Origin: Candidatus Bathyarchaeota archaeon
GTDB lineage: Archaea > Thermoproteota > Bathyarchaeia > Bathyarchaeales > Bathycorpusculaceae
DNA length: 64,000 nucleotides
Assembly: GCA_963780185.1 (NCBI GenBank)
Contig: CAWABA010000005.1
Location: 64,001 to 128,000 of the forward strand
Direction: 5' to 3'
Shown here: piece by piece, positions 5,912 to 59,835 of the stretch
Position numbering within the stretch: the stretch's first letter is position 1
Layout: each line of letters begins with the position of its first letter
Program-made: the position numbers and the translations under genes
Notes under the pieces: generated by a model
The model's input: only the letters and a program-made list of their open reading frames with translations
Databases searched by the model: none
Told to the model about the DNA's origin: nothing

Positions 5912-6322
5912 AGGTGTTCAGCTTAGAAATTGAGAATGGGTGCTCGCTTGCATAAAAGTTTTGAGGTTAAACAACGCCGTCAACGGTTTTCAGATTCGAC
6001 GTTTCCGTCTTCACTTCAACATCCAATCCTTCTTGAATCTGTCTTTTTCGCGGCGTTTAATGGCGAGAAAGCCATTTCCGCGGTTATTTAACATGCAGAA
6101 GCAACCATTTCATATTGAAAGTTGCCAAATCAAATCCATGTTAAACCATGTTGAATCCTATTTGGATCCTAATTGAGGCATCTAGTAGACCGGGCGGTAG
6201 ATGTTGCATTCAAACACAAACAGGGCGCGGTGCTTTTTTGCGTCTATTTAGCTCTTCTAGAGGTCCCTATTTGGTTCATCTAGAAAACCGTAGGGTAGGC
6301 GGGACGAAAAAAGAAAAAACTG

Positions 6323-53132: not shown

Positions 53133-53621
53133 ATGGCGCAGAAAAGTGAACCATGCAAATGCATCGTAGTCGTTAAAGTTCGGGGAACAGTAAGCGCACA
53201 GAAAGAAACACGAGAAACCCTAGAACTGCTCCATCTCTCGCACACTAACCACGCAATGCTCATCGACAGCCGCCCAGACTACCTTGGAATGCTGCAACGC
53301 GTAGGCAACTACGTAACCTGGGGCGAACCCACAGCAGAAGTCGTATCCGCCATGCTTCAGAAACGCGCGAAACTGGCAGGCGGCAAAAAACTCACCGAAG
53401 AATACATCCAAAAGCAAGGCTACAAATCCTTCGACGACTTAGCCGAAGCCATCATAAACTGCAAAGTCGCATACCAAAAACTACCCGACACACAACCCGT
53501 CTTCAGACTGCATCCGCCAAGCAAAGGCTACAAAGGCAAAACCAAGAAAAGCTTCAAAGCAGGCGGCGAATCAGGCTACCGCGGAGAAGCAATAAACGCA
53601 CTAGTAAAACGCATGATATAA
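53133..53621 (+). CDS. rpl30: 50S ribosomal protein uL30
   Basis: YVTWGE, FRLHPP, GYRGEAIN. Confidence 0.96.
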   Translation: MAQKSEPCKCIVVVKVRGTVSAQKETRETLELLHLSHTNHAMLIDSRPDYLGMLQRVGNYVTWGEPTAEVVSAMLQKRAKLAGGKKLTEEYIQKQGYKSFDDLAEAIINCKVAYQKLPDTQPVFRLHPPSKGYKGKTKKSFKAGGESGYRGEAINALVKRMI

Positions 53622-53637
53622 TCTGCGTTAATCATCA

Positions 53638-53662
53638 TTTCCTTTTTGTTGTTGTTTTCTCT
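53638..53662 (+). terminator. T-rich archaeal terminator after rpl30
   Basis: TTTCCTTTTTGTTGTTGTTTTCTCT 17 nt after the stop. Confidence 0.5.
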
Positions 53663-53733
53663 GGCAAATCTTAAATTCCAACGGTTATTATACACGTATG
53701 GCTAAGAGAAAGATTTGCGTTTGGGGTTCGTAA

Positions 53734-54282
53734 ATGAAAAAAACCACGATTATCGTTGAGGGCTGGATACAAAACATCGGCTACAGGACTTTCGTGAAAC
53801 AAGTTGCAGTGAACCTCGGCGTAAAGGGTCTCGTTAGAAATTTATCCAATGGAAAAGTTGAAATTTTCTGCGAAGCTGGCTCGTCGAAGATTGAGGAATT
53901 TGAACGGAAAATCAGTTACAAGGGAAAGAAGAATGATCCCTTGAGCGTATACGTTGAAAATTTGGCTGTTCATGCAGAAGGCGAAAAAGGATATCTTGGA
54001 CCTTGGAAGGAATACTCAGATTTCGAAATTGACTATGGCTTTGAAATTCAATCGCCCGTTGATCGTGCAATGCTAGAGAACTTGGAAAGCGGCAAGATTT
54101 TTGTCGTTTCATCGAACGATAAAATCAGTGCGTTGACTGATCAATTTTCTATGTTTAGGCAGGAAACGAACGGTAACTTTGGAAAAATGGAGGAAAAATA
54201 CGGGTCAATTTCTGAAGAAATGAAGAAAATGCGAACTGTGCTAGAAAAGCTAGCCGACGCCTACGTTGAACGCCAGAAATAG
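53734..54282 (+). CDS. Acylphosphatase domain protein with C-terminal coiled coil
   Basis: GWIQNIGYR, GLVRNL..GKVEI. Confidence 0.82.
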   Translation: MKKTTIIVEGWIQNIGYRTFVKQVAVNLGVKGLVRNLSNGKVEIFCEAGSSKIEEFERKISYKGKKNDPLSVYVENLAVHAEGEKGYLGPWKEYSDFEIDYGFEIQSPVDRAMLENLESGKIFVVSSNDKISALTDQFSMFRQETNGNFGKMEEKYGSISEEMKKMRTVLEKLADAYVERQK

Positions 54283-54311
54283 CGTCGAATAATGAGTTTT
54301 TTACAAGTGGC

Positions 54312-54458
54312 TTAGCGGCTTCCTTCGGGTTTTGGTCCAGGGTTGGGGTCAGGTTCGGGTTCTGGCTCAGGATTCGGTTCAGGGAAAGGGGTAGGCGGCT
54401 CCTCCGGCAAAACATACGCTTCAACCTGCCCACAAGAAAACGACACATCTAAAGTCAA
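54312..54458 (-). CDS. Pro/Glu-rich micro-protein (48 aa, not in ORF track)
   Basis: MTLDVSFSCGQVEAYVLPEEPPTPFPEPNPEPEPEPDPNPGPKPEGSR; repeat is degenerate at DNA level but regular at protein level. Confidence 0.5.
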   Translation of the reverse strand: MTLDVSFSCGQVEAYVLPEEPPTPFPEPNPEPEPEPDPNPGPKPEGSR

Positions 54459-54609
54459 ACTTCTCAAAATCAAACACCGATAATTGTATTGTTGCGTGTG
54501 TCTAAAAAACTAGCCGTTTGGACACAACAGAAATGTGTGCAACCAACTTTATCCAATTTCAGGATAAACCCAGTTAGAAAGCATGGGACGAGAAAGGCTT
54601 ATCTTTTTC

Positions 54610-56049
54610 TTAATGTGGAAGCATAACGGCTCCTACCCCTGAAGGAGGCATTCGCATGGTGTGTGCCACGGCTAGGGCTAGTGCCCAGGTCATGTCGTCA
54701 TGGCTATTCTGTGGATGGCTAAACTGTAGGTGCCCGTTTTTGGCGTAGGTGTATTGTTGCTCGTTCAGTTGCTGGCATAGGCGGTGGTGGTAGGGTATGG
54801 CTAGGCGGTTTTGTTCCATGGCGATTTTTAGGCTGCTGAGGAGTTCTTCTTTGGTTTGGATGGTGAATTTTATGCCTTCGACGTTGGTTAAGCCTTGGTT
54901 GTGCATTTCTTCAAGTATGGGTTCGCCGACGCCTGTCTGGTCTACGATGATGCGGTGGATGCCGTGGAGTTTCTGGTTTGCACGTACTAGGTGCCCTATG
55001 ACTTGGGTGTAGGGTGTGTCGAGGGGGAACTCGTAGAGGTAGATGAGTTTTAGGACGTCGTCTTCCCGTTTGAGGATGGCGATGACGCTGTAGTCTTGCA
55101 GTTTGCCGAAGTCGACGCCAGCGTAGTATTCTGCGTTGAAGAAGTCACGTTCAAGAGTTGGAGCCAACTCAACCCCCGACGCCTGAGCCAACTCAACGCA
55201 GCCGCGAATCAAGCTCTGGGGCAAGTAGCTGTTTAGGGCTTCAACGAACTCGGCTTCATACTCCATCAGATATTGCTCTTGAGTCATGTTTAGGCGCATT
55301 TCTTCCAAAAACTCCTTCGTCACCAGCGGGCACTCCTCCGACTTTACTTTGTGGATGCTGTATTTTGGGTTGGTGAAGGCTCGGTAGAAGAAGTGGTTTT
55401 TGTCCCAGGGCGTGCTGAGGAAAACCGCGTAGCCCTGCGTGGTTGTTAGCATGGGGAAGAGGACTTGGGTTATGACTTTTTCGCTGACCCAGCTGGCTTC
55501 GTCGCAGATTATCATGTTGGCGTTGTAGCCTCTTAGGCGATGTTCGCTGCAGGGCAATGCGATGATGCGGCTGCCGTTGTCGAATTGGACCAGCGTGTGG
55601 GTGACCCGTGCCAGTTTGCTTCTTAGCCGCGGCGAGGCGTAGACGAAGGACACGATGCGGTCAAACATTATCATGCTTTGGCGTAGGCTGGGGGCGGTGA
55701 TGAGCACGGTCATTTTGGGGTTGAGGTCGGCGAAGTGCAGGGCTTTCATGGCGATTGTAGTGGTTTTTCCTGTTTGCCTGCCCATGCATGCCACGATCCG
55801 TTTGCTCTTATCCTCCAAAAGATACGCCTGATACGGGTAAGGCTCCACTTCTAAAACTACTCTTGCGTAATCGACGGGTCCAGCTATCTGGACTTCTTCT
55901 TGGGCAATGATTTGTTTGACGGCCCATTCGACTTCTTCAAGCCTTCGAAACGTTCTTGCCTGCCGATAGCTGCGCCACCTGCGCTGTAAGCTCGTCAAGT
56001 TTCTTCTCAATCCTCTCCCATTTCTCATACCCCGCCAACAAAGGCGCAT
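54610..56049 (-). CDS. Terminase large subunit (true start uncertain, probably near 55970)
   Basis: PYQ adenine motif, Walker A MGRQTGKT, Walker B IICDEA, STP coupling motif, nuclease GVDFGKLQD / VDQTGVG / HDD..ALALA. Confidence 0.93.
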   Translation of the reverse strand: MRLCWRGMRNGRGLRRNLTSLQRRWRSYRQARTFRRLEEVEWAVKQIIAQEEVQIAGPVDYARVVLEVEPYPYQAYLLEDKSKRIVACMGRQTGKTTTIAMKALHFADLNPKMTVLITAPSLRQSMIMFDRIVSFVYASPRLRSKLARVTHTLVQFDNGSRIIALPCSEHRLRGYNANMIICDEASWVSEKVITQVLFPMLTTTQGYAVFLSTPWDKNHFFYRAFTNPKYSIHKVKSEECPLVTKEFLEEMRLNMTQEQYLMEYEAEFVEALNSYLPQSLIRGCVELAQASGVELAPTLERDFFNAEYYAGVDFGKLQDYSVIAILKREDDVLKLIYLYEFPLDTPYTQVIGHLVRANQKLHGIHRIIVDQTGVGEPILEEMHNQGLTNVEGIKFTIQTKEELLSSLKIAMEQNRLAIPYHHRLCQQLNEQQYTYAKNGHLQFSHPQNSHDDMTWALALAVAHTMRMPPSGVGAVMLPH

Positions 56050-56374
56050 AATCCTTCGCCGCCTGGAAAATTATCCGAAGCCGCTCCAACGCCAACTTGT
56101 CAACTCTCTGTGTGCGGCATATTTGGTCGTAGGCGGTGCTGTACAATTTTACGATTCTATCGATGGTTAAAGCGTCGGCGGCGGGTTCCACGGGTTCGAC
56201 GGCGCTGGTGGTTTTAGCGGCGAGGAGTGCTTGAAACTTGATTTGCTTGCGGATGGCTTCATAGCTTCTGCTTGGGAGCTTGCCGCTAGCGTAGACCTCC
56301 TGAGCACCGAGTCCCTGCTCGATGAGTTCGCAAAGGACCTTGTTTTCTTCTTCACTCCAACGATTTCCACCCAA
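55937..56374 (-). CDS. Putative terminase small subunit (N-terminal HTH/Myb-like, C-terminal coiled coil)
   Basis: RWSEEE..L...LPSRSYEAIRKQ; helical body; overlaps the large-subunit 5' end. Confidence 0.6.
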   Translation of the reverse strand: MGGNRWSEEENKVLCELIEQGLGAQEVYASGKLPSRSYEAIRKQIKFQALLAAKTTSAVEPVEPAADALTIDRIVKLYSTAYDQICRTQRVDKLALERLRIIFQAAKDYAPLLAGYEKWERIEKKLDELTAQVAQLSAGKNVSKA

Positions 56375-56718
56375 AAATATTCCACCTGCAATCGGTTATT
56401 TACATATGTCACATGCATGAGTCATAGGTAAACATTATCGACAGCAATCCCACAAAAACGCAGCCACCGTTCCTCTCGACCTACGTCACTGTAGACACTA
56501 AACCGCTCACTTATTTGCTCCCAGAGGTTATAGACCAAAACTCTTCCATCAAACCCTGTCCTCTCTCCCTGACGAGATGAGCCGCTGGACTACTCGTAGA
56601 GGTAAAATATCTAATTCGGCAATAATCAAAGTTCCGAATACGCAGGCACCAAGAAAATCACCAAACATTCCATTAACAATTACATCAGGAAAAATATTGT
56701 TGTTTTGGTGAGCGGTTT

Positions 56719-56770
56719 TTCGATGTCTAACTATCACATCAACAGAGAAAACAGAAAGAATCAAAGGCAC
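56719..56770 (-). repeat. Orphan copy of a PEF-CTERM-like tail, homologous to 57651-57702
   Basis: Identical TTCGATGTCTAACTATCACA core; encodes VPLILSVFSVDVIVRHRK vs VPLLLAVLSVAVIVRHRR. Confidence 0.8.
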
Positions 56771-56780
56771 TCTTCGGTGG

Positions 56781-57488
56781 TCAAAGATTGGAAATTGTTA
56801 TGTTTAGCGGTGCTGTCTGAAAGTTTGGCGGTGTAGTCTGAATCGGGTATGGATTAGCATATCCAAGTTCGCCTATAATGTAGTACGCCCCAGATGGAAC
56901 TTGATTAAGTGGAGGAATTGGGGGTGTCATGTCGCTTTCTTGTGTCCAGATAAGATTTCGTGTATAGCTTTGGTTCGGAGCCAAAGTTACGTTCACGTCA
57001 TTAAGTGGATATGCTCCGAGTTCCCACATGTAAACTGCGTTGTTTGTGCTGTTGTAAACTTGGAAGTTGAAGTTTGAATCTCCGTTCTGATTGATGAAAT
57101 TTAGAGTTTGGTTGCTTACGTTTGTAATTTCAAAAGTTATTTCCACTTCCTCTCCTACCGCAAACGTGGTTTTATCTGCCATGAGCGCAATGGACAGTTG
57201 GAACCCGTTGGTTACGGCGCTCAACGCTGTGATGTTGTTATCCTCGCTGACGGTTTGATTCGGTTCAGTAGTTTGAAGTGGTGTCGGAGTAGGTGTTAGG
57301 TTTGGTTGAGGTGTTGAAGTTTGAAGTTGTTCACCTAACAGGGTGGTTGGAGCAGGGGTTGAACCATCTATCCCTGCGTTGAAAAAACCACTTGTAAAGC
57401 CCGCTACTATACCTATTAGAATTATTACTGTTACTAAAACAGCAATTCCAATATTTCTTTTAAAATGCAGGTTTTTCGGAGTTGACAA
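56781..57488 (-). CDS. Membrane-anchored protein with BsuPI-like (proteinase-inhibitor) Ig domain
   Basis: N-terminal TM, PT linker, DKTTFAVGEEVEITFEITN...NFQVYN...TLAPNQS...W...PSGAY. Confidence 0.7.
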   Translation of the reverse strand: MSTPKNLHFKRNIGIAVLVTVIILIGIVAGFTSGFFNAGIDGSTPAPTTLLGEQLQTSTPQPNLTPTPTPLQTTEPNQTVSEDNNITALSAVTNGFQLSIALMADKTTFAVGEEVEITFEITNVSNQTLNFINQNGDSNFNFQVYNSTNNAVYMWELGAYPLNDVNVTLAPNQSYTRNLIWTQESDMTPPIPPLNQVPSGAYYIIGELGYANPYPIQTTPPNFQTAPLNITISNL

Positions 57489-57627
57489 TTATCACTCGTC
57501 TCCTAGATATTATTACGTTAGGTCTACGAATTTACACATTATGGTTAAGCATTGCACTATCTTATAATTCTATAATTTAGAACACCAATTTCCAATTAAT
57601 TTCCGCTTGATTCTTGACTAAGCTTAG

Positions 57628-58254
57628 TCAAAGTTTCTTGACTGAGACCCTTCGATGTCTAACTATCACAGCAACAGAGAGCACAGCAAGAAGCAAGGGC
57701 ACAATCACCAACGCAGACAACTCAGGAACGGAGGTCATTGGGGTAACTGTTGGTGTTGAGGTATCTAACGCGGGGGTTGGAGAAGGAATAGGAGAGGTTT
57801 CATTGTTTATTGAGAAGTAGATTGTGTCAGCCCAGGTGGCGGTGTAGTTGCCGCTTCCAATGGGGGTTTCCTTGAATGGCGCTCCTGGTGGGTTCTCCCA
57901 GCTTAGGTAACCTGTTAGGTAAGCTCTCTCAAATACCGTTAATCGGTGCGAACCGTTAGTTAACATGGGAAGATGAATATTTCCCATATCCGTCAAAAAG
58001 ATTGGTTCTTCGCCGTTTCCATCGATGCTGTAGCTAAGTTCAATGGGCATTGCCACATTTGGGTCGAGGTTTGTGCTTATGGTTAATGTCAGATAATTGC
58101 AAGTGTAGGTTTCATTAAGGGGCGAGAACACTGTTACTCCTCCTGAAAAGTGTATGGGGCTGCCTGAGTCTGCTATTGCGGCGGGAATGCCCACTGCGAA
58201 TGAAACCGCTGTTGAGCAAAGAAGCAGCGTCATCAACGCATTTTTCAGCCTCAT
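57628..58254 (-). CDS. Secreted surface protein with PEF-CTERM-like (VPEL) sorting signal
   Basis: Signal peptide, SPLNETY, YSIDG, LTNGSH, PT linker, VPEL-TM-RHRR. Confidence 0.8.
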   Translation of the reverse strand: MRLKNALMTLLLCSTAVSFAVGIPAAIADSGSPIHFSGGVTVFSPLNETYTCNYLTLTISTNLDPNVAMPIELSYSIDGNGEEPIFLTDMGNIHLPMLTNGSHRLTVFERAYLTGYLSWENPPGAPFKETPIGSGNYTATWADTIYFSINNETSPIPSPTPALDTSTPTVTPMTSVPELSALVIVPLLLAVLSVAVIVRHRRVSVKKL

Positions 58255-58402
58255 GTCGCAACACTCTGACGCAATCCAACGTCACGTTGAATTACACAAA
58301 ATGGGAGATATTACTCTTCGCAGGGAACAGTCTGTTCCTCGAAAAGAACAATTAAAACTATGCCCGAACAGGGATAGTTAAAGATTTTTAACTTATGTTT
58401 CT

Positions 58403-58654
58403 GGCGTCCTGAGCCTGAGGCGGGCAACTGTAGGAGGCGTCTAATTCCTGAAATGTATTATGTGCGTTCGCCTGAGTGAAGATGGGGAAGGCGGGGCTTG
58501 GACCAACTGTTGTTGAATCCCGCCGGCGGTGTCTGTTGTCAGGTTGACGGGAAGCCTTCCACGGAGAACTCTCCCCGCCAAAAGCGCCCATACGCGACAA
58601 TAACTTTAACATAGGCACTATGTTGAAAGTCGCATCCGCCCATCCCAAATGGGC
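58403..58654 (+). ncRNA. Candidate structured non-coding RNA of unknown family
   Basis: GC-rich island in AT-rich DNA; nested stems with G-U pairs on + strand; TTAAAG 25 nt upstream. Confidence 0.5.
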
Positions 58655-58973
58655 AGCCCACAACGCAATTCAAGCCCCAAACCAAAAAAGCAATCAAAAA
58701 CGCAAAAAGCCACGGGGGAAAGTCTCAACTTTCACCAAAACAAAAGTCTCAACTTAAAAATATCTGCAAAACCCAAAACAAAAAACCCAAAAAATAACCA
58801 ATCAAACCAAAAAACGAAAATATATAGACTATAAAACCGTCAATTAGGCATGCATTCGTCATTTTTGATGGAAAACTGCTTCAGGGAATCTGCTTGTTTT
58901 CTCTTCCTTTATGTGCGATATGTTTTATAGTTAGGAGTTTGAAATCCGTTAGGTATTGGAGGGGGAATGACAC

Positions 58974-59432
58974 ATGAGTGCAAAATGGCGTAGAAGCGCA
59001 AAACACCGTAAATGGCTAGATTTTAACGGCCAAACAGAGAAAACCAGCAAACCGAAAATGACCAGACCCGAACATGCTTACCGCATAAAAGCTATACCTG
59101 TTCCACCAAGCTTTCGACCATCCAAAAACTTTAGCGAACGCAAATTCCAAGAACAAAAACCACTCATAGACATACTAGAGGAAAACAGCTTCATAACGGT
59201 TGTAGCCGAAATCACAGGGTTTAATAAGGATACCCTCAAAATTCATGTGAAAGACCAGAAAATCACGCTGTCGGCAAAATCGAAAGACCGCAGATACTAT
59301 AAAAGTTTAAATCTGCCGAAGGTAGTGATTCCAGACGTCATGTACACCAAATTCAAGAACGGTGTACTGGAAATAAAGCTAAGAAAAGCTGAAACAGCAA
59401 TAAACAAAGAAGCTGACCAAAATGCCGCATAA
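58974..59432 (+). CDS. Hsp20/alpha-crystallin family protein
   Basis: PLIDILEE...VVAEITG...YYKSLNLP...FKNGVLEIKLRK. Confidence 0.85.
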   Translation: MSAKWRRSAKHRKWLDFNGQTEKTSKPKMTRPEHAYRIKAIPVPPSFRPSKNFSERKFQEQKPLIDILEENSFITVVAEITGFNKDTLKIHVKDQKITLSAKSKDRRYYKSLNLPKVVIPDVMYTKFKNGVLEIKLRKAETAINKEADQNAA

Positions 59433-59835
59433 ACTAAGAAAAATAAGAAAATTTAGAGGCTCAAGAACGGTAGGCTACGGTAGGATAGGCCAGCACCGAG
59501 ACTCTGGGTCAAAAGGGCACCGAAAAGTTGGACGCCACAAACACTTGTGGAGCTACGTTGTAACCCATGAACCTGATTACTTCGGCAAAAACGGATTCAC
59601 ATCACCAAAAAGCCTTCACACCATAGACAACCCCATTAACCTAAGAAAACTTGAAGAACTCGCACAAACAAGCCAGCAAATTAACCTGACAGAATTAGGT
59701 TACACAAAACTTTTAGGTTCAGGAAAAATCACAAAAGCCTTAACTGTGCAAGTACCCTCTTACTCGAAATTAGCGGCGGAAAAAATCAAAAAAGCAGGCG
59801 GAGAAATCGTAGGCTCCCAAGTTAACGGAGAGTAA
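59422..59835 (+). CDS. rpl15: 50S ribosomal protein uL15
   Basis: RKFRGSRTVGYG, YFGKNGF, KLLGSG, KIKKAGG. Confidence 0.96.
   Translation: MPHKLRKIRKFRGSRTVGYGRIGQHRDSGSKGHRKVGRHKHLWSYVVTHEPDYFGKNGFTSPKSLHTIDNPINLRKLEELAQTSQQINLTELGYTKLLGSGKITKALTVQVPSYSKLAAEKIKKAGGEIVGSQVNGE

Follow-up and report, generated by a model that had tools for sequence, protein, structure and literature searches.

Among tailed viruses, terminase counts as a hallmark. In the sections of a 2019 report that concern it, one archaeal element, NitKor-E1 of Ca. Nitrosopumilus koreensis AR1, carries a gene encoding terminase's small subunit (TerS) directly upstream of one for the large subunit (TerL), these being its only head-tailed-virus genes (PMC6563490). 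The same sections list a VapBC pair, a PD-(D/E)XK nuclease and a tyrosine integrase, read the element as a relic, call the role of its terminase ‘enigmatic’ and describe terminase as previously unseen in non-viral elements (Krupovic et al. 2019, PMC6563490). Analysis of a 64,000-nt stretch (the window) of Candidatus Bathyarchaeota archaeon assembly GCA_963780185.1 uncovered a comparable TerS-TerL pair, lodged between the genes for ribosomal proteins L30 and L15. The source genome (G000) is a 2.75-Mb Bathyarchaeia metagenome-assembled genome (MAG) of 93.5% completeness from a soil archaeon, and the window is part of its 177-kb contig C5. By analogy of gene content, not of sequence relatedness, NitKor-E1 appears to be the closest precedent: in all contexts of the TerL family found here (clade A, defined below), TerS and TerL are the sole virus hallmark genes, and toxin-antitoxin or defence cargo adjoins them in 4/7 contexts, those of G000 and its relative G120 not included. 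Unlike NitKor-E1, which in its published description is a single case with an integrase, the pair described here has no integrase, occupies one locus in four species, is under purifying selection and is joined by at least two further solitary lineages in the same genus.

Gene transfer agents (GTAs), such as RcGTA, preserve the complete set of head and tail genes within the genome. The pair resembles them, for the terminase genes only: packaging genes of viral origin are passed on vertically under purifying selection, and no integrase or replication gene comes with them; it differs in that G000 has no head-tail gene set. Bacterial phage satellites (PICI/SaPI, PLE), which divert or sabotage packaging, carry integrase, replication and regulatory genes, excise, and usually encode TerS only. 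Shared with them are a chromosomal element with its own terminase component, variable anti-virus cargo and, as proposed here, dependence on helper capsids, whereas this locus holds a full TerS-TerL pair and no integrase, replication or regulatory gene. Head-tailed Bathyarchaeia viruses and proviruses (IMG/VR loci L040-L071) have the same overlapping TerS-TerL arrangement, the same catalytic residues and TerL proteins of 61–77% identity, but also portal, protease, capsid, cement and tail genes by the terminase, of which clade-A copies have none. Described head-tailed Bathyarchaeia viruses include the Fuxivirus/Kunpengvirus type (bioRxiv 10.1101/2023.08.24.554615). No account of solitary terminases conserved in Bathyarchaeia emerged from a literature search, with supplementary tables outside its reach.

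The pair is inherited by a small clade of species at the junction between L30 and an Hsp20-like gene that precedes L15 (L30|Hsp20-L15), with both genes intact and under purifying selection, and it is the only part of its parent provirus still present. Its retention at the same spot in related species suggests that the host uses it. On balance, we somewhat favor the interpretation that this is an exapted, host-retained TerS-TerL pair, captured from a head-tailed Bathyarchaeia virus, which would act on or with infecting viruses. In the window, the pair and its anchors, based on our own selection of open reading frames, are as follows.

54610-56049, minus strand: TerL, terminase large subunit of clade A, intact, 479 aa, matching PF03237, PF17289 and phrog_2
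55937-56374, minus strand: putative TerS, 145 aa, overlapping the TerL start by 113 nt and assigned from position and architecture
54570-54609, minus strand: about 40 nt past the TerL stop, a stretch that G120, G088 and solitary 3′ fragments have kept along with the 3′ end of TerL (blastn limits 54573-54596)
53133-53621, plus strand: ribosomal protein L30, left anchor, matching PF00327, with orthologues in 40/41 relatives searched
58974-59432, plus strand: Hsp20-like gene, right anchor, matching PF00011 and NF041800 and overlapping the L15 start by 11 nt
59422-59835, plus strand: ribosomal protein L15, matching PF00828, found in 39/41 relatives searched

By sequence, TerL is a T4-like terminase large subunit, with an N-terminal packaging ATPase and a C-terminal RNase-H-like nuclease. 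It matches PF03237 (E 9.4e-16, 58.6 bits; cut-off 22), PF17289 (E 1.2e-5, 25.8 bits; cut-off 22.6) and phrog_2 (E 6.8e-45). Across an alignment of 28 relatives, the ATPase columns (Walker A R91, Q92, G94, K95, T96; Walker B D183, E184) and the acidic nuclease columns (D313, D370, D451, D452) are invariant. Solved nuclease domains of Thermus-phage TerL proteins, whose matching residues we take to be catalytic, align with that of the window copy (5m1f, E 8e-14), and solved ATPase domains match too. The initial annotation had reported L30 and L15 to be split by about 5.8 kb holding a TerL with intact ATPase and nuclease motifs; the measured spacing is 5,800 nt and the catalytic columns are invariant, in agreement with it. 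When virus-invariant columns were defined as those at least 95% conserved in 42 virus-context TerL sequences (155 columns), 147 persisted throughout the five clade-A copies and 144 throughout the six copies of a second solitary lineage, clade B. Residue 259 (window ~55273-55275), a near-invariant Ala in the 42 virus-context sequences, is Gln in 5/5 clade-A and Glu in 6/6 clade-B copies, and has been replaced independently in the two solitary lineages.

The small gene does occupy the small-subunit position proposed for it initially, overlapping TerL by 113 nt, and a homologue sits directly upstream of TerL and overlaps it in 25/32 IMG/VR loci (tblastn). Four of its residues (W6, R36, R98 and Y109) are invariant across 30 orphan and viral copies. 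An AF2 model (pLDDT 74) places helices at 8-19, 24-30 and 38-53, then at 71-87 and 93-143, that is, a predicted three-helix (Myb/SANT-like) N-terminal domain followed by a long C-terminal helix. Myb-domain matches are weak (E above 0.5, with Myb_DNA-bind_5 below its cut-off), no Pfam family scores above cut-off, and Foldseek against the PDB gives no match at E 0.001 or better; in the atlas, its neighbors are unnamed viral clusters (0.97) and Terminase_5 (0.81). Prediction of a TerS-TerL complex scored 0.00 in both runs, which is no answer and counts neither way.

In order to place the pair among its relatives, TerL sequences from related genomes and viruses were compared. TerL matches occur in 33/41 relatives, and G000 itself encodes four paralogues. 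In a TerL tree of 69 sequences, the window copy and three MAG copies form clade A (SH-aLRT 100, stem 0.17) with no viral member, and clades A and B nest within a 14-row clade (99) that contains TerL of type-2 viruses and proviruses (layout described below). Defined at a TerL identity of at least 83%, clade A is present in 6/120 genus genomes (G000, G120, G088, G098, G123 and G019), in a single copy per genome. The intact pair occupies the L30|Hsp20-L15 junction, oriented as in G000 and with differing neighbors, in G120 (TerL 90% identical), G088 (88%) and G098 (85%); at the same junction in G016 and G004, only ~100–240 nt of the TerL 3′ end are left, while G123 and G019 carry the pair at other loci. 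A species tree from seven proteins recovers ((G000,G120),G088) with support of 100/100 and (G098,G123,G019,G016,G004) with 95/98, and all eight species of these two carrier clades show clade A or its remnant. The tree of the cassette DNA reproduces ((G000,G120),G088), and the cassette history appears to match the species tree wherever that tree has resolution. These trees were built from few genes, one of them by a quick search. Between G000 and G120, synonymous divergence (dS) is 0.47 for TerL, compared with 0.46 for the adjacent acylphosphatase-like gene (acyP), 0.41 for L15 and 0.40 for SecY.

Pairwise Nei-Gojobori estimates give TerL of clade A dN/dS ratios of 0.09–0.14 at dS 0.47–0.84 and the putative TerS ratios of 0.11–0.18. 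Clade-B TerL gives 0.06–0.14 and virus-context TerL 0.06–0.12 where dS is 0.3 or more, with 0.15 and 0.29 for two pairs that are closer. Both frames are open in six species; by our estimate, neutral evolution would have introduced ~700 substitutions over 1.4 kb, so that no open frame would remain. An apparent break of the G019 copy by a TAG codon was rejected, as the stop falls at alignment codon 2, upstream of the likely start. Together, the shared locus in G120, G088 and G098 with remnants in G016 and G004, the concordant trees and the ratios well below 1 support the initial proposal of a host-maintained pair whose orthologues follow the species tree, where that tree is resolved.

The nearest virus-context relatives of this TerL (72–76% identity) are found in head-tailed virus or provirus contigs, in which the same small gene overlaps TerL. 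More broadly, it is 61–77% identical to TerL on contigs that carry portal (PF06381 or PF04860), capsid (PF04454 or PF25209), protease, cement and tail tube genes. A scan of IMG/VR recovered 32 contigs with TerL identities of 37–75%, the long ones plainly head-tailed (PF06381 portal, DUF2213 protease, Linocin_M18/HK97-type capsid, cement protein and tail tube). Two layouts were distinguished: type 1, in which a tail module is followed by small genes p135 and p81 and then by TerS-TerL, the head module being on the opposite strand, and type 2, in which TerS, TerL, portal, protease, cement, capsid and tail are colinear. In the viruses, variable cargo comes directly after TerL. JGI metagenome contigs supplied a further 461 relatives, and the figures that follow rest on the best 80 of the 461. 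Five of those loci reach at least 83% identity, two of them with 10-kb flanks on both sides (131-kb and 158-kb contigs), and none of the five shows a portal, capsid, protease, tube, p135 or p81 gene; among 14 loci with at most 77% identity and flanks of at least 5 kb on both sides, 11 have structural matches and the other three carry p135/p81. Within the finite sample of genomes, IMG/VR contigs and metagenomes, then, clade A is known only as a solitary pair, and every placeable copy of at least 83% identity is without structural genes. Four IMG/VR ‘viral’ contigs (L041, L048, L055 and L057) have the pair and no structural match in the fetched stretch, which for L057 includes 10 kb downstream; TerL alone may lie behind their viral call. 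A repeat scan of G000 found a sole CRISPR array (C13:3052-4675; 22 repeats of 37 nt, 21 spacers), whose spacers gave no match to the fetched viral loci beyond the 15–17-nt chance level.

Particle genes were sought throughout G000. Profile searches of the 93.5%-complete assembly gave no match to capsid (PF05065, PF04454), portal (PF04860) or tube (PF18906) families, the PF25209 capsid model not having been run; a PF06381 portal search is uninformative, as control genomes gave no match either. Searches by tblastn with the proteins of four viral contigs returned nothing structural, and neither did profiles built from Bathyarchaeia viral proteins or phmmer with 45 type-2 proviral proteins, the exceptions being a portal scrap of 70 aa (C5:150783-150995), next to a second, frameshifted TerL, and the p135/p81 pair on C12 described below. 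Tyrosine recombinases (PF00589) have three matches in G000, all on contig C7. With no head or tail genes in G000, the pair cannot make particles alone. A type-2 portal does match in all five other clade-A genomes, and a type-2 head-tail element, syntenic at both ends, lies 2–25 kb beyond SecY in G088, G123, G098, G120 and G000. It has a TerL of its own, TerL-D, which is 39–46% identical to clade-A TerL and present in G088, G098 and G120. The element is in a different state in each genome: nearly complete with a split protease in G088; with its portal interrupted by an inserted gene in G098; without TerL-D in G123; reduced to TerL-D and a truncated portal in G120; and to a frameshifted TerL-D (C5:145035-146443) and scraps in G000, where this debris is 17–25 kb beyond SecY. 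TerL-D remains intact in G120 and G098 despite the broken portal, so that here again a terminase outlasts its neighbors. The tape-measure-like protein and those following it are just 43–46% identical between G088 and G123. The head-tail cluster of G123 starts right beside SecY with no terminase before the portal, and the clade-A pair is on another contig, an arrangement that comes closest to the split GTA of the initial annotation. The initial annotation had envisaged a head-tail cluster elsewhere in the genome; none was found in G000, while G088, G123 and G098 do carry one, decaying, and with its own TerL or once so.

The degraded provirus of G000 spans C5:136000-153300 (8–25 kb past the window end), where a truncated tape-measure-like gene and large fibre-like secreted proteins are also found, and is syntenic with much fuller copies in G088 (L162), G123 (L164) and G098 (L166). 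At the start of contig C12 lie an orphan p135/p81 pair (C12:5905-6562) and a fibre-like gene (C12:17-2674). Judging by synteny with G088, C12 continues the far end of the C5 provirus, the contigs probably being neighbors or the region rearranged.

Gene order in the spc-type operon of G000 is L6, L32e, L19e, L18, S5 and L30, then, past the gap, Hsp20-like, L15 and SecY. The gap contains, besides the pair:

53734-54282, plus strand: acylphosphatase-like gene (acyP) with a C-terminal extension, matching PF00708 (E 1e-15)
56549-56770, minus strand: detached remnant of a C-terminal membrane-anchor segment, directly 3′ of the stop of the next gene listed and containing one copy of a 52-nt repeat
56781-57488, minus strand: secreted or membrane protein (sec235) with a BsuPI-like fold, matching PF12690 at threshold, variable island cargo
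57628-58254, minus strand: secreted protein with a C-terminal anchor, island cargo, with an 84% identical orthologue in G120 only
58583-58760, no strand assigned: one copy of a dispersed ~180-bp repeat, present in ~30 copies of ~170–180 nt (70–90% identity) across G000

Profile scans of the gap (Pfam and PHROG) identified no portal, capsid, tail or integrase family and no replication initiator or regulatory gene of the satellite kind. The window has no tRNA, and no att-like repeat brackets the gap beyond chance-level matches of 16–18 nt; on the absence of portal, capsid, tail, integrase and att repeats, the initial reading of the gap holds. About 0.7 kb of it is non-coding, including the dispersed-repeat copy. 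Rfam at E of 1 or better returned one sub-threshold chance match, the promoter and terminator scan stayed at shuffle level (with bacterial models, irrelevant to an archaeon), and NCBIfam had no match for TerL, TerS or the secreted proteins. L30 and L15 had been described as normally adjacent, which is true outside the genus, their matches being 3–61 nt apart in 8/11 same-contig genomes from other families of the order, and does not apply within it: the junction is open in 22/22 same-contig genus genomes, with a spacer of ~0.67–9.9 kb. The L30|Hsp20 spacer is a general variable spot (L020, L021, L022, L023), and in G014, G005 and G015 it is filled by a common block of membrane acyltransferase-like, secreted and GDSL-like genes unrelated to terminase. 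The Hsp20-like gene lies just upstream of L15 in 12/13 annotated genus relatives (exception G010), a chaperone gene having joined the tail of the spc operon in this genus. The acyP gene has an orthologue at the same position in G003 (70% identity) and G120 (93%) and is native junction cargo, separate from the viral pair.

Homology among full copies and fragments drops abruptly beyond the ~40-nt stretch 3′ of the TerL stop, and nucleotide homology between contexts is limited to the two genes (54610-56376 for G098, 54609-56458 for G123 and 54605-56376 for G019). In relatives, the pair forms the fixed core of islands whose cargo otherwise varies; in G000 that cargo is surface proteins. G088 carries a Type I restriction-modification system with AbiEi/AbiEii; G098 a PLD nuclease (DrmC-like), a type II methylase, a PDC-M14B-like protein and a PIN/MazE pair; and G019 and its metagenome twin PbeA/PbeC/DndB-like genes, replaced on another metagenome contig with the same locus as G019 by Type I M+S+R, a PIN/MazE pair and a DUF2283 protein. 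These are the contexts, 4/7 distinct ones, in which defence or toxin-antitoxin genes lie next to the pair; G000 and G120 carry secreted proteins and a bPH/zinc-ribbon protein. The annotated flanks of the six contexts other than that of G000 contain no integrase, replication initiator or regulatory/excision gene.

For sec235, no counterpart was found in G120, G098 or the viral loci. A stop codon separates it from its downstream anchor copy, and the 52-nt direct repeat (56719-56770 and 57651-57702, 88% identity) encodes a C-terminal hydrophobic anchor with a basic tail (‘...VIVRHR...’) seen on many secreted proteins and contigs of G000. Copies of the ~180-bp repeat, which contains a short perfect hairpin, also occur at C7:74797-74975, C4:59900-60080 and C11:80440-80615; a MITE-like or regulatory element and a small RNA are all conceivable. 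A ~35-nt motif that occurs both in G004 loci and at the right edge of the insert was considered as a boundary signal and rejected, as it is part of this repeat.

Other solitary terminases occur in the same genus. Clade B consists of a G000 paralogue (C6:377410-378804) and five others (SH-aLRT 100, stem 0.2); it is in conserved synteny in G000, G003 and G099, a pseudogene in G004 and truncated in G100. Clade C proteins (~490 aa, 40% identity to clade A) are found in 28/120 genus genomes, with a conserved small upstream gene at 34/35 loci, a ~130-aa gene at 18/35 and no other conserved neighbor. In G000, a 231-bp inverted repeat (90%; C6:651025-651255 and 657188-657418) flanks a 6-kb block with clade-C TerS-TerL, ParA-like and wHTH genes, and weaker copies of it (74–83%) occur on seven contigs, one within the window (6135-6229). 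A TerL-based transposon, suggested by the multi-copy appearance of TerL, was rejected: the copies are old divergent lineages of 40–67% identity, mostly single per lineage, and no terminal repeats are shared around clades A or B.

TerL fragments that hold only the C-terminus (residues 392 onwards) account for 22 match rows, far outnumbering other partial matches. On G004:C55 (L033, 7080-10053), upstream of a proteasome-alpha/exosome gene cluster, four of them form an array in alternation with small cassettes, PIN/MazE among them; each keeps the same ~40 nt after the stop, and the upstream limit varies. The same helicase-to-proteasome-alpha spacer in G000 has one fragment (C1:196606-196704). On one reading, a resident TerL 3′ end might serve as a recombination landing pad for cargo exchange.

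Under the exaptation hypothesis, which we consider slightly better than an even bet from comparative evidence, the pair would act when related viruses infect, because the head modules of those viruses partner with this terminase type. TerS would attach to its recognition site, and TerL would cut DNA, translocate it or do both, so that either viral packaging would be spoiled (interference) or host or island DNA would be loaded into borrowed capsids (helper-dependent transfer). We lean towards interference, though the two cannot be separated. Repurposing for defence or DNA processing, which the initial annotation had also raised, is possible and fits the island context in relatives. A more general hypothesis, possible but held only tentatively, is that solitary TerS-TerL pairs are recurrent, selection-maintained host genes in at least three lineages (A, B and C), each shorn of every other viral gene, whose antiviral interference at the packaging step would double as helper-dependent transfer. 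In this scheme, TerS would recognize the site at which related viruses are packaged, or else one of its own, and TerL would cut that DNA or pump host or island DNA into the procapsids of the invader, which would explain why defence and toxin-antitoxin cargo piles up next to TerL.

Several observations weigh against a host-retained, virus-directed pair. Its function is dispensable, clade A being present in only 6/120 genus genomes; relocation or re-acquisition of the pair has occurred at least twice (G123, G019); and in G000 and G120 no defence gene adjoins it. PADLOC matched none of its families to TerL or TerS of clade A or clade C, and the small gene is a putative TerS on position and architecture only. 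All genomes are MAGs, and the seven-protein tree leaves the relation between the two carrier clades unsettled. The structural genes may have been lost in parallel, rather than once before the species split. Genes of the decaying neighboring provirus have equally low dN/dS (TerL-D 0.08–0.09, portal 0.10, capsid 0.14), so the ratio alone cannot prove selection at the level of the host.

Among alternative explanations, the pair could be a selfish, helper-dependent cassette or minimal satellite-like module that spreads via the capsids of infecting viruses with no direct gain to the host. Shared homology bounded by the start of TerS and the stop of TerL (54605-54610 to 56376-56458 for G098, G123 and G019), three different chromosomal sites within one clade, the frequency with which contigs break at TerL, and a turnover of cargo on both sides that recalls bacterial satellites with defence hotspots all speak for it. 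We nevertheless regard it as unlikely: no integrase, replication or excision gene is present in any of the seven contexts, clade A is single-copy per genome, the cassette tree tracks the host where resolved, and sharp coding boundaries are also expected from selection on two genes in a fast-changing island. The pair might instead have been captured repeatedly and independently at an integration hotspot near the end of the spc operon, the copy in each genome being the residue of a separate provirus and its low dN/dS having been earned while viral. A provirus site is indeed nearby, given the type-2 element 2–25 kb beyond SecY in five genomes, whose genes have ratios of 0.08–0.14 and whose tail genes are only 43–46% identical between G088 and G123, and across the genus the L30|Hsp20 spacer ranges between 0.67 and 9.9 kb. 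This scenario is improbable, however, in that the same two genes alone would have had to survive in at least three separate lineages, that the dS of the pair matches that of adjacent host genes, and that clade A, monophyletic on its long stem, includes no virus among 32 IMG/VR, 79 genome and the best 80 of 461 metagenome loci.

Decay and particle production lead to two further possibilities. Provirus debris is common in these genomes (the TerL-D frameshift, the portal scrap, p135/p81 on C12, the TerL 3′ fragments), and G016 and G004 have lost the pair, as would suit a neutral provirus fragment that has yet to decay. This is quite improbable in view of frames open in six species at dS 0.47–0.84 with dN/dS of ~0.1, 147/155 invariant columns kept, and the loss of all other parent-virus genes everywhere; the recent provirus remnant that the initial annotation had left as an option is rejected, since what remains is old and has been selectively pared down to two genes. 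Its suggestion of a multi-locus GTA, with this terminase serving a host-kept head-tail cluster elsewhere, draws on G123, where a cluster of portal, scaffold/protease, cement, capsid, adaptor, tube-like and tape-measure-like genes lies beside SecY without a terminase and clade A is on another contig, the portal (81%) and TerL (75%) both being close to the same IMG/VR virus type (L040); no integrase is present in the annotated stretches. We judge it very improbable. G000 has no capsid, portal, protease or tube gene, which refutes a GTA there unless the missing 6.5% of the genome holds them; the cluster has its own, different TerL-D in G088, G098 and G120; it decays differently in five species (frameshift, portal insertion, split protease, large deletions); and its tail genes are not conserved.

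In the relevant sections of the earlier archaeal report (PMC6563490), TerS-TerL without other viral genes was considered enigmatic and probably a relic. The Bathyarchaeia pair adds conservation at one chromosomal site across species, intact catalytic residues and recurrence across independent lineages within a single genus. As a provirus marker, TerL alone is poor in these genomes, because several IMG/VR ‘viral’ contigs hold only the pair. If the host does use it, a packaging motor would join the list of viral parts recruited by cells, and the pair would point to the attacking or borrowing of the packaging step in archaea.

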